Source: Octopus vulgaris (taxonomy: Eukaryota). Taken from it: DNA of 64,000 nt. The translations under genes and the position numbers were made by a program. The DNA lies in assembly GCA_951406725.2 (NCBI GenBank), contig OX597817.1:137950001-138014000 (forward strand), read 5' to 3'. This document shows, piece after piece, positions 11,637 through 63,062 of the stretch; positions within the stretch are counted from its first letter, which is position 1; every line of letters begins with the position of its first letter. The notes under the pieces were generated by a model. That model was not told the DNA's origin. It saw nothing but the letters and a program-made list of their open reading frames with translations, and did no database searches.

Positions 11637-11682
11637 AACACAACGTTTCGCTGAATATACCCTCCGGCCTTCATCAGGTGTC
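11637..11682 (-). ncRNA. Minimal type-I hammerhead ribozyme
   Basis: GACAC CTGATGA AG GCCG..CAGC GAAAC GTT GTGTT; stem II imperfect. Confidence 0.7.
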
Positions 11683-11798: not shown

Positions 11799-11844
11799 GA
11801 CACCTGATGAAGGCCGGGAGGTATATCAGCCGAAATGTTGTGTT
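11799..11844 (+). ncRNA. Minimal type-I hammerhead ribozyme
   Basis: GACAC CTGATGA A GGCCG..CAGCC GAAAT GTT GTGTT; C>T in stem III. Confidence 0.7.
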
Positions 11845-20066: not shown

Positions 20067-20263
20067 ACTCAACCAAGTTTCCCAAGTTCTGGTCATAGAC
20101 CATAGAACACTCAACCAAGTTTCCCGAGTTCTGGTCATAGACCATAGAACAGTCAAGCAAGTTTCCCGAGTTCTGGTCATAGACCATAGAACACTCAACC
20201 AAGTTTCCCGAGTTCTGGTCATAGACCATAGAACACTCAACCAAGTTTCCCGAGTTCTGGTCA
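20067..20263. repeat. 42-bp tandem repeat, about 4.7 copies
   Basis: Unit ACTCAACCAAGTTTCCCGAGTTCTGGTCATAGACCATAGAAC. Confidence 0.95.
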
Positions 20264-20685
20264 TTTGCAGAATAAATAGAGACGGCGGAGGTGGCAGACG
20301 TCGTTGCAATGTAAACATGATTTGTTATAAGAGAAAGATTGTCCAGATTGTGTGTTGGTGGTGGTGGTGGCGATGATAATTATCTTTAAGAATGGAGATA
20401 AAGAGAAATTGAATGGGAGTTAGAGGTAGAAAGAGAAGTTGTAAATTTTGGAGTGAATCCGACGGGATGTAGTGGGCTTTAACCCCGGCAAAAAAAAATA
20501 ATATCTGTTGCGTTTCTGAAAGAGGTGAAGTAGGAATATTGAAACTTTTGCGAATCGGACGGGATGTAGTGGCATTGAAAGCGATCCAAGCGGTAAAAAC
20601 GCAATTCAGTTTTATATATATATATATATATACATAAATATATATATATACATACATACATATATGTGTGTGTGTGTATGTATAC

Positions 20686-29354: not shown

Positions 29355-29419
<65 letters not shown>

Positions 29420-29505
29420 CAAAAAAAAACACAAGAAAAAACAACAAGGCGACAACGTGGTGCATGCAAAGTGTTAAAAGACGCTCAGGGAAGGAAAGAA
29501 AAGTA

Positions 29506-29540
29506 GTTTAACGTTTCGAGCAAAGCTCTTCTTCAGAAAC
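29506..29540 (-). ncRNA. Minimal type-I hammerhead ribozyme
   Basis: GTTT CTGAAGA A GAGC TTT GCTC GAAAC GTT AAAC. Confidence 0.85.
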
Positions 29541-29808
29541 AGGAGGCAGAGGAATGTCCAAGAGAAGAAGAAGACGGACGAAAAAATTCACCAACAATCC
29601 ACATGTAGTTACATTTTGGAATATATATATATATGAAGGTATGTATACGTATATTTATACATCTGTGTGAGTATAGATATATGAACACACAGTCAAACAC
29701 ACACACACAACTAAATACATAGTTACAAAACTAGATGGAAAATTAGTACTCAATACCAAAAGTAGAGTGAAATATTATTTTATTGAAGTCGAAAAAAAGC
29801 TACCTAAT

Positions 29809-30281: not shown

Positions 30282-30753
30282 GTAAGTGATGTAATAGCTA
30301 TCAGCAGTTAACTGCAGCCGATGTTGATTTTTTTCGCTTTCGAAACGATTTCAATAATCATTTACTGCCTACTGCAAAACGCTGCAGCTTCCTACCTGAC
30401 ACAAGACTTCGAAATGTTATTGCTTCACATTTAACAGCAACGATTGATAAGGAAATAAAAGCGTTAAAATATAAGAAAATAAGCGGTTACCGTTCAGGCA
30501 GATCCGTCTTCATTACAATAGTTTACAAGAAAGCTATTGCACATAGATGCATGTACATACATATACATACATACATACATACATACATACATACATACAT
30601 ACATACATACATACATACATACATACAATCATACATACATACATACATACATATATATATATAGGGAGAGTTTACGAAAAAAACAAAAGACGAAGACAGG
30701 TGGTGTACGAAACAAACAGATGTAATAGTATAACGCTCAGGAATAGAAAAAGT

Positions 30754-30789
30754 CTTTTACGTTTCGAGCCTACGCTCATCTACAGAAAG
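30754..30789 (-). ncRNA. Minimal hammerhead motif (core variant CTGTAGA)
   Basis: CTTT CTGTAGA T GAGC GTAG GCTC GAAAC GTA AAAG. Confidence 0.7.
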
Positions 30790-30879
30790 GGACACAGAAA
30801 AAAACAAGGAGAGAAAAAATGTGTGTAGTGGCTAATGATCTATATACAGGTAAAGACCATTGAATTACACCTAGAAAGT

Positions 30880-36090: not shown

Positions 36091-36143
<53 letters not shown>

Positions 36144-36231
36144 TAATCCAAACGGGAAAACAAAAAAACAACAACAATGGAACAATTACAGTATTATTAT
36201 TAATAGGCGCTCAGGAAATGGAAGCAGGAAG

Positions 36232-36266
36232 GTATGACGTTTCGAGCGGAGCTCTTCGTCGGAAAC
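36232..36266 (-). ncRNA. Minimal hammerhead motif (core variant CCGACGA)
   Basis: GTTT CCGACGA A GAGC TCC GCTC GAAAC GTC ATAC. Confidence 0.7.
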
Positions 36267-36989
36267 ATAAAGAAGGAAGAGAGAGGAAAGAAAGATCCCA
36301 AAGCGGGCAACAGGGATAGAGAAAAAAACGACTGGTGTTTACGAGTTACACATGGTGAAAGGCGGAAGTTTACGATAACAAGAGCAAAGTAGGTTTTTAA
36401 AGCCAAAAGAGTGGAGACAAGGTTGGTAACGCAACAGATGTGTGTGTATGTGTGAGTGTGTGCGTGTGCGTGTGTGTATGTGTGTGTGTGAGGCGAGATA
36501 AAAAAACAAAAAATATATGTATGTGTTAGTGTGTGCGTCTGTGTGTAGGCGTGTGAGGTAGGGCGAGACAGTGGTAGGCATAGCAGACAATGGTCAGTAG
36601 TAAGAAAAAGAAGGAAGGAGGAAGGGAGGGAGGGGAAGGGGTGGGGGCGTATGTAGCGTGCCAGCGTGTGTTGAGTAGTAGTGTGTGTGTGTGTGTCCAG
36701 TGTCGTGGTAGTATTAATGGCGAGTAGATTGAATGTGTGTAAGAGTAATGTATATATTTAAGCAATGTGTGTATATGTGTGCGCGTGTGTGTAACAAAAA
36801 AGGGGGGGTAAGGAAAAAGGACTCCAGCTGAGGGGAAGATGGAAGAGTGGTCCCGCGGAGACGGGCGTGGGAAAACCCAACGACAAGCGACGGTCCCAGG
36901 AACGAGCGGGAGGTCTCGTCGGGTCCAAGAGCGAGGTGCATGCGGCGCGTATGCGTGCGCGAACCGGCGCAAGCGCGTGTGTGCGCGCG

Positions 36990-40687: not shown

Positions 40688-40741
40688 TATCGGACCCGAT
40701 TTCAGAGTTAGTTCACAAGAACCTTCCCTTCATCAGTGATA
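40688..40741 (-). ncRNA. Type-I hammerhead ribozyme
   Basis: TATCA CTGATGA AGGG AA GGTTC TTGT GAACT AA CTCT GAAA TCGG GTC CGATA. Confidence 0.75.
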
Positions 40742-41167: not shown

Positions 41168-41221
41168 TATCAGACCCGATTTCAGAGTTAGTTCACAAGA
41201 ACCTTCCCTTCATCAGTGATA
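41168..41221 (-). ncRNA. Type-I hammerhead ribozyme (perfect stem I)
   Basis: Same as 40688-40741 but with GTC TGATA pairing to TATCA. Confidence 0.8.
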
Positions 41222-41387: not shown

Positions 41388-41441
41388 TATCACTGATGAA
41401 GGGAAGGTTCTTATGAACTAACTCTGAAATCGGGTCCGATA
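41388..41441 (+). ncRNA. Type-I hammerhead ribozyme
   Basis: TATCA CTGATGA AGGG..CTCT GAAA TCGG GTC CGATA; predicted cut after C41436. Confidence 0.75.
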
Positions 41442-58853: not shown

Positions 58854-58995
58854 GTAATAATAATAATAACATCGAAAAATACCTTTGGAATCAAGACACC
58901 TGATGAAGGCTGGAGGGTATATCAGCCGAAACGTTGTGTTAACAACAAACAAGATGAGGACAAATATCCGTCAAATGTAAATAATGTAAATAATG
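58678..58995 (+). mobile_element. tRNA-headed SINE carrying a hammerhead ribozyme, preceded by an inverted copy of its own 3' end
   Basis: Inverted tail 58678-58744, A box TGGCGTAGTGG 58743-58753, B box GAGTTCGATTC 58786-58796, (AAT)n, HHR, then (GTAAATAAT)n tail. Imperfect TSD CAGCAATAAT / CAACAATAAT. Confidence 0.85.
58895..58940 (+). ncRNA. Minimal type-I hammerhead ribozyme (intact)
   Basis: GACAC CTGATGA A GGCTG gagggtatat CAGCC GAAAC GTT GTGTT; predicted cut after 58935. Confidence 0.85.
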
Positions 58996-62850: not shown

Positions 62851-62917
<67 letters not shown>

Positions 62918-62921
<4 letters not shown>

Positions 62922-63015
62922 TAATCCAAACAAGAAAACAAAAAAAAACACAACAACGCAAGGACGTGGAACAAATAAAGTATTATTGGACGCTCAGGAA
63001 AGAAGGGAAGAAGGA

Positions 63016-63021
<6 letters not shown>
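62918..63021 (-). mobile_element. Short copy of the ACGCTCAGG hammerhead family, within (TA)n
   Basis: TTAATCCAAAC..AAAACAAAAAAAA..ACAACAA..GTATTATT.GGACGCTCAGGAAA, shared with 36140-36235 and 29417-29509. Confidence 0.75.

Positions 63022-63062
<41 letters not shown>

Follow-up and report, generated by a model that had tools for sequence, protein, structure and literature searches.

Junctions at a predicted ribozyme cut

A 104-base repeat copy in the Octopus vulgaris genome, set within a (TA)n repeat, starts at the base that would follow the cleavage site of a hammerhead ribozyme, which raises the question of whether it was reverse transcribed from RNA that had already been cut there. We analyzed this copy in the window (the whole stretch of 64,000 nucleotides taken from contig OX597817.1) and its relatives across the genome; the features of the window are collected in Table 1. 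In the numbering used here, the first base 3' of the predicted cut is +1.

Table 1. Repeat copies, hammerhead motifs, and neighboring features in the window
Feature	Position	Strand	Details
5'-truncated stub of Penelope-like terminal repeat	62918..63021	-	Predicted hammerhead cut (+1) to fixed 3' end (...GGATTAACTT)
(TA)n target repeat, 5' junction	63022..63056	.	First base ambiguous with U17 of the ribozyme
(TA)n target repeat, 3' junction	62862..62917	.	
Longer copy, second (youngest) subfamily	36140..36400	-	Minimal hammerhead; 5' end not mapped
Stem I 5' strand of the 36140 copy	36266-36263	-	Core CCGACGA from 36262; predicted cut GUC^AUAC at 36236/36235
More distant copy	29417..29620	-	Minimal hammerhead; 5' end not mapped
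Stem I of the 29417 copy	29540-29537 with 29509-29506	-	Core CUGAAGA from 29536; predicted cut GUU^AAAC at 29510/29509
Family 3 copy (related family)	30662..30830	-	Bounds approximate; core CUGUAGA, predicted cut GUA^AAAG at 30758/30757
Family 4 hammerhead (unrelated repeat)	58896..58939	+	Canonical CUGAUGA core, GUU^GUGU
Unrelated hammerhead-bearing repeat	11637-11677; 11804-11844; 58900-58940	-; +; +	Long stem II
Further hammerhead-like motif (CUGAUGA...GAAAUCGGGUC)	40693-40736; 41173-41216; 41393-41436	-; -; +	Longer stem III; two copies in tandem, one inverted
Tandem array	20067-20264		42-bp unit, 4.7 copies, 96% alike

The stub covers the final ~104 bp of a terminal repeat; it starts with AAACCCTCC on the minus strand, and on the plus strand it closes with ...GGGTTT at 63021. 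The initial annotation had aligned it up to this point with the copies at 29417 and 36140, beyond which the sequence turns into (AT)n. We recovered both alignments, with 74% identity over 81 aligned columns for the 29417 copy and 71% identity over 105 aligned columns for the 36140 copy, and in each case the region matched by the stub is the part 3' of the hammerhead cut. The best 40 genomic matches to the stub have 97-100% identity. Among the 29 closest relatives that we examined (97-99% identical), 28 carry a hammerhead immediately 5' of AAACCC, with the upstream continuation GUUU-CCGACGA-A-GAGC-UCC-GCUC-GAAACGUU, and the remaining one is cut short at about +3. Because the hammerhead lies upstream in 28 of 29 relatives, the register of the stub's predicted cut is fixed by its own subfamily, and the proposed start at the predicted cleavage site holds.

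The ambiguity with the TA repeat, previously given as one base, extends to two: the minus-strand T at 63022 fits U17 of the ribozyme and the A at 63021 fits (TA)n, placing the breakpoint at -1, +1, or +2. Because of this ambiguity the single copy proves nothing, and the stub alone is weak evidence of cleavage; a background origin of this particular copy is possible, at roughly 10-35% based on the ratio of +1 to upstream counts. The junction is not the single case that it had been taken for, as an exact 26-base match to it was found at 11 loci (reversed control: 0) and the +1 junction class of its own subfamily comprises 22 loci.

The element and its hammerhead

Judged by its sequence, the family is a Penelope-like retrotransposon that encodes a reverse transcriptase (RT) and a GIY-YIG endonuclease, with a Neptune-type linker. 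A protein search of the genome identified open frames of 800-930 aa. Pfam reported RVT_1 (E 0.0006-0.002) and GIY-YIG (E about 0.008) on the long frames, both under the Pfam cut-offs, and no matches on four broken fragments; the motifs RYIDD, CSRSRCNTC, and IY-C..C-YIG were read directly in the long frames. RT is followed by GIY-YIG in one frame, as in Penelope-like (EN+) elements. At 12 of the 20 long-frame loci examined, two repeats (pLTRs) lie 5.9-6.2 kb apart and are 91-100% identical, in the order repeat with hammerhead, frame, an untranslated stretch of about 3 kb, and second repeat; direct terminal repeats in partial tandem, each with a hammerhead, likewise agree with Penelope-like (EN+) elements. 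The CSRSRCNTC linker and the (TA)n flank found at 76 of the 89 stubs counted below are of Neptune/Nematis type, an assignment that does not separate Neptune from Nematis. In the available text of PMC8557442, linkers of this type are tied to Neptune-type microsatellite targeting. Copies are solo 5'-truncated pieces or the ends of 6-kb coding elements, unlike non-LTR retrozymes, whose non-coding tandem units of a few hundred bases each carry a hammerhead.

A 20-base anchor of the stub's own subfamily (+8..+27) occurs in 2575 copies, and 21 of the first 100 extend past -155. Five long copies traced for 10 kb all run through a CA-rich tract, with broken RT or endonuclease frames in three. Every copy has its 3' end ~100 bases beyond the cut. 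Since the sequence in tandem junctions runs on into the element, this end is read as an internal start of reverse transcription; by analogy with the anole element, for which such a start has been shown (PMC11167929, available text), the fixed 3' end would mark the internal RT start. In full copies, the 5' repeat reaches 37 to 1593 bases past the cut and shares 91-100% identity with the 3' end of its own element; among the 12 two-repeat elements, not one has its start at the cut of the 5' repeat.

Several other observations concern the structure of the family. Near-identical full-length elements (loci L180-L197) carry open frames of 800-930 aa, and their 5' repeats vary widely in length; in the youngest subfamily each 5' repeat is 96-100% identical to its own 3' end (L180-L197); the near-identical full-length copies apparently reflect recent activity and more-than-unit-length copies. 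Nests have formed where copies inserted into the (TA)n tails left by earlier insertions of their own family or a related one (L184, 2138-2430; L025; L177, 6675-7181), and a broken RTE-like LINE with endonuclease and RT fragments lies upstream of one Penelope copy (L173, 1093-4400). The largest 5'-end cluster of the own subfamily (51 of 100 copies at -86..-115) falls at TTTCA(G/A)TATGTGACC (L072-L171), where it may mark a transcription start yielding ~210-bp solo insertions. A splice acceptor at this cluster was considered and dropped, as the AG is not conserved across subfamilies. Of 30 copies from the youngest subfamily, only 2 have their ends in this region.

The motif upstream of the cut has the layout of a minimal type I hammerhead: stems I and II with covariation, a palindromic ACGU at stem III, and a UH cut triplet. 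Stem I pairs covary across families (GUUU/AAAC, CUUU/AAAG, ACAC/GUGU), and stem II is GAGC/GCUC. The predicted cut of the own subfamily is GUU^AAAC, with GUU in most copies; in the second subfamily, stem I contains a U-U mismatch. Both subfamilies have the core CCGACGA (67 of 76 copies), which departs from the canonical CUGANGA by a C at position 4; this U4C change is known from nature and lowers in vitro activity, yet the variant suffices in a viroid (PMC3088659, available text). An Rfam scan of the window returned no match. The predicted hammerhead would cleave itself as a dimer. Loss of both CpGs in CCGACGA (window 36262-36256, minus strand, and most relatives) would give the canonical CUGAUGA; such copies are rare.

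Junction map of the own subfamily

We mapped junctions with a search pattern of four TA units, one repeat-breaking base, a gap, and then the anchor. Rows taken numbered 98, 84, 28, and 100 of 101, from which distinct loci were counted by hand by their leftmost element base. Near-duplicate neighbors were counted once; we left out repeat rows of one locus, one ambiguous G-AAAC junction, one junction beyond -55, and the +7/+8 bin (about 35, incomplete by design). A script re-count on fetched loci gave 22 junctions at +1, 5 at +2, 33 at +3, and 29 at +4..+6, a sum of 89 at +1..+6; the hand count upstream of the cut gave 4 at -1..-6, 19 at -1..-23, and 66 at -24..-55. The rate at +1..+6 thus exceeds that at -1..-6 by a factor of 22, that in the core (-1..-23) by 18 (95% interval 11-31), and that far upstream (-24..-55) by 7.2 (5.2-10). 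With directly abutting repeats alone, the counts are 68 over 6 positions, 12 over 23, and 56 over 32 (ratios 22 and 6.5). In an unfiltered sample of 100 copies, 7 start at +1..+6 and 1 at -1..-27; three +1 copies in this sample had been labeled -1 by the script owing to the shared T.

That the stub reflects one random 5' truncation that happened to fall at the cut would accord with the scatter of 5' ends over the whole repeat and with the two-base ambiguity of this copy. For the population, this is refuted by rate ratios of 7 to 22 (p below 1e-30), and we regard chance as extremely improbable. Because the 89 stubs fall into at least four lineages, 80 of them with a recognized 3' end and 76 with a TA repeat behind that end, we treat them as independent insertions.

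We dropped the reading of +3 as the true mode, as 16 of the 33 +3 copies belong to the GUC^AUA lineage, in which +1 to +3 are indistinguishable from the repeat; in AAAC lineages alone, +1 has 16 junctions and +3 has 14. GUC lineages are weakly enriched among the stubs (39/80 vs. 23/73, p=0.03; p=0.26 without the +3 class), and the GUC^AAA lineage shows no enrichment among them. A strong GUC enrichment obtained with a nearest-neighbor classifier (53/80 vs. 18/59, p=4e-5) was rejected because the classifier misassigned the own GUU lineage; stricter lineage marks gave the weak effect, which is confounded by age and ATA microhomology.

Youngest subfamily

In the youngest subfamily (GUC^AUAC, the type of the 36140 copy), 64 junctions lie at +1..+6 vs. 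11 at -1..-23. A single anchor at +45..+64 (1036 copies; rows 13, 57, 49, and 100 of 104, with one ambiguous and one duplicate row left out) gave 8 junctions at -17..-1, 93 at +1..+10, 54 at +11..+20, 13 at +21..+30, and 12 at the AT-rich +31..+44 (25 at +21..+44). Because counts rise at the cut and then fall towards +44, we interpret this profile as a decaying peak and not as a general excess of short copies; its left edge is sharp at the cut and its tail is about 20 bases long. Three junctions start at +1 sharing no base with the repeat. At least 147 of the 1036 copies (14%) are in the peak, with which 4 of 30 unfiltered copies agree.

Across both subfamilies, >200 fragments in the genome begin at or shortly after the predicted cut. 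The initial annotation had named a genome-wide peak of truncation points at the cut as its check: two subfamilies have the enrichment from the cut onwards and the sharp left edge, albeit spread from +1 to about +20 instead of confined to a single base. Taken across the population, the junctions argue strongly that an RNA or cDNA ended at the cut.

Such a pile-up could also arise after insertion, by deletion between the upstream (TA)n and the TA/ATA at the cut, or through an effect, at the DNA level, of the pyrimidine tract downstream of the cut. The cut context does share 2-3 bases of microhomology with (TA)n, and microhomology sites elsewhere are hot spots (15 junctions at -34, 9 at -30, 8 at -48); +1, with 22, is not significantly above the TAT site at -34 (p=0.16). 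However, enrichment is 15-fold among junctions starting with C/G and 8-fold among those starting with A/T; in the youngest subfamily, ATA at +1..+3 has 22 junctions vs. 5 for TAT at -34, while +31..+44, although AT-rich, has only 12; and few junctions fall in the upstream pyrimidine tract. In a sequence-matched control, AAA at +1..+3 has 60 junctions and the AAA of GAAAC at -7..-5 has 5. Post-insertion deletion is very improbable.

Comparison families

Family 3 has the same predicted fold as the own subfamily and a CUGUNGA core, with U at core position 6. Its junctions number 37 at +1..+6 and 46 at -3..-21, with 10 unresolved (four ambiguous rows and one inverted duplicate left out). The matched control (26 vs. 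16, p=0.08) gives a weak step that differs from that of the own subfamily (p=3e-4).

Family 4, a repeat with mostly short solo copies, had no step in a small sample, underpowered as a discriminating test (24 rows, 6 of them set aside as internal deletions or ambiguous), with 5 junctions at +1..+6 vs. 10 at -1..-20. One of 30 loci was at the cut, an inverted pair ending at +1 and +3. After the fact, the absent step also fits a need for two ribozymes. By one anchor, the unrelated hammerhead-bearing repeat has at least 3337 copies, which often occur as inverted pairs and begin, ~85 bases before the cut, in (AAT)n/(AAC)n.

These comparisons bear on two further explanations. Reverse transcription of uncut RNA might stall at the folded ribozyme, which may be paired or protein-bound; because stems I and III meet at the cut, a stall would place cDNA ends nearby. 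Consistent with this, the core is depleted of junctions (0.8 per position vs. 2.1 further upstream) and the fold predicted for the isolated motif has its 3' foot at +4. That fold is weak (-7.2 kcal/mol), however, and the fold predicted in context leaves +1..+17 unpaired and ends its stable stem at -4..-9, where only 5 junctions lie. Dimer energies computed for the motif did not represent hammerhead folds and were set aside. The peak is strong in the second subfamily even though its stem I is weaker. A stall is disfavored because of the unpaired +1..+17, the stem ending at -4..-9, and the weak step of family 3 despite its identical fold, and we consider it unlikely.

Alternatively, transcription might start at the same A and thereby supply the RNA 5' end. 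The loose initiator consensus is YYANWYY. Both cut contexts (TTAAACC and TCATACC) fit it; those of families 3 and 4 do not, and there the step is weak or absent. Internal promoters within Penelope repeats are described in the available text of PMC6765202. Nevertheless, a start site would have to fall by chance on the very base of a cut that had been predicted in advance, and the separate, larger 5'-end cluster at about -100..-113 resembles the start of the own subfamily. An extra G is expected opposite a cap, yet just 1 of 7 unambiguous +1 junctions has one. In the D. virilis and anole elements, moreover, the cut is preceded by an intron end or the start codon (PMC4209133, PMC11167929, available text). 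A start site at the cut is accordingly a doubtful explanation, and an improbable one.

Proposed origin of the stubs

We consider it likely, on sequence grounds, that the stub derives from RNA that the element's own hammerhead had cut beforehand, with reverse transcription running off the cut end after about 100 bases. The initial annotation had described a fossil of the reverse-transcribed cleaved product; the pile-up of junctions from the cut partly supports this, with self-cleavage as the best explanation of an end there. Four sets of RNA contigs showed coverage and no RNA ends.

The element protein would nick (TA)n and prime reverse transcription inside the RNA at about +100; internal priming has been shown in vitro for the anole element (PMC11167929, available text). 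Cutting would require two ribozymes paired through the palindromic ACGU and perhaps the element protein. On hammerhead-cut RNA the cDNA would terminate at +1 and be joined to the repeat via microhomologies of 0-3 bases, often losing bases, up to about 20; microhomology joining of cDNA has been proposed for R2 (PMC3774820, available text). The product would be a stub of about 80-104 bases without a ribozyme, and such stubs are likely dead ends. On uncut or re-joined RNA the enzyme would pass the site, with full copies passing it twice. For most copies (93 of 100 sampled in the own subfamily), the template RNA would have been uncut or re-joined at the cut site. The 5' repeats past the cut, near-identical to their own 3' ends, fit the circular or multimeric templates proposed in PMC4209133, so far as its available text describes them.

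Relation to known ribozyme-bearing retroelements

Already known, in the available text of the sources, are the element type, the minimal hammerhead (PMC4209133), and ribozyme-defined 5' junctions in R2. Minimal type I hammerheads in Penelope-like repeats were described by Cervera and de la Pena 2014 (PMC4209133). As in those hammerheads, stem I is short, an unpaired base precedes stem II, the 15.2-16.2 positions are palindromic, and there is no loop III; as in those elements, both terminal repeats carry a hammerhead and many copies are solo and truncated. The core differs in its C at position 4. The available text of that paper states that in vivo evidence was absent and in vitro activity low, and we found no mapping of genomic 5' junctions in it.

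The Poseidon element of Anolis carolinensis (Frangieh et al. 2024, PMC11167929, available text) shares an internal RT start, located 85-92 nt downstream of the hammerhead cut in its RNA (~100 nt here), and an AT-rich target, and its cleavage is protein-assisted, as proposed here. The octopus element differs in clade type, having a Neptune-type linker. For Poseidon, that text reports that no RNA-seq reads started or ended at the cut and that uncut RNA was the main in vitro template, whereas here genomic junctions pile up from the cut.

R2 retrotransposons with an HDV-like ribozyme (Eickbush et al. 2013, PMC3774820, available text) are alike in that the ribozyme cut sets the 5' junction and junctions vary through microhomology priming. 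Their cut makes the template of full-length copies, whereas here a cut 100 nt from the RT start would lead to short stubs; the ribozyme class and the retroelement class also differ. Animal non-LTR retrozymes (Cervera and de la Pena 2020, PMC7229834; Li et al. 2026, bioRxiv 10.64898/2026.07.22.740005; available text) share the type I hammerhead, a link to Penelope-like elements, and proposed circular templates, but they are short non-coding tandem repeats with canonical hammerheads, whereas the hammerhead here lies in the terminal repeat of a coding element of about 6 kb.

In the literature covered, which was incomplete and in part partial text, we found no published report of genomic junctions piling up at a Penelope hammerhead cut and nothing relevant on hammerheads in octopus. 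The gap stated in the available text of PMC4209133, PMC8557442, PMC11167929, and the review PMC6765202 is the opposite of a junction pile-up at the cut.

Implications

Taken jointly, and held tentatively at somewhat short of an even balance, these observations could mean that minimal Penelope hammerheads, the C4 core included, cleave in vivo and that the junction maps preserve a fossil record of it. At least 7% (own subfamily) to 14% (youngest subfamily) of insertions would then have come from cut RNA as dead-end stubs, and the ribozyme would partly abort transposition except where the cut RNA is closed into a circle again; such re-joining would account for the more-than-unit-length full copies with 5' repeats 37 to 1593 bases past the cut.

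Junction mapping is a test that needs a genome alone, is usable on any family, and allows core variants to be compared. A sharp germ-line junction pile-up at a predicted cut would be evidence that these weak ribozymes cut during transposition, and the copying of cut RNA would explain how one class of very short repeats arises.
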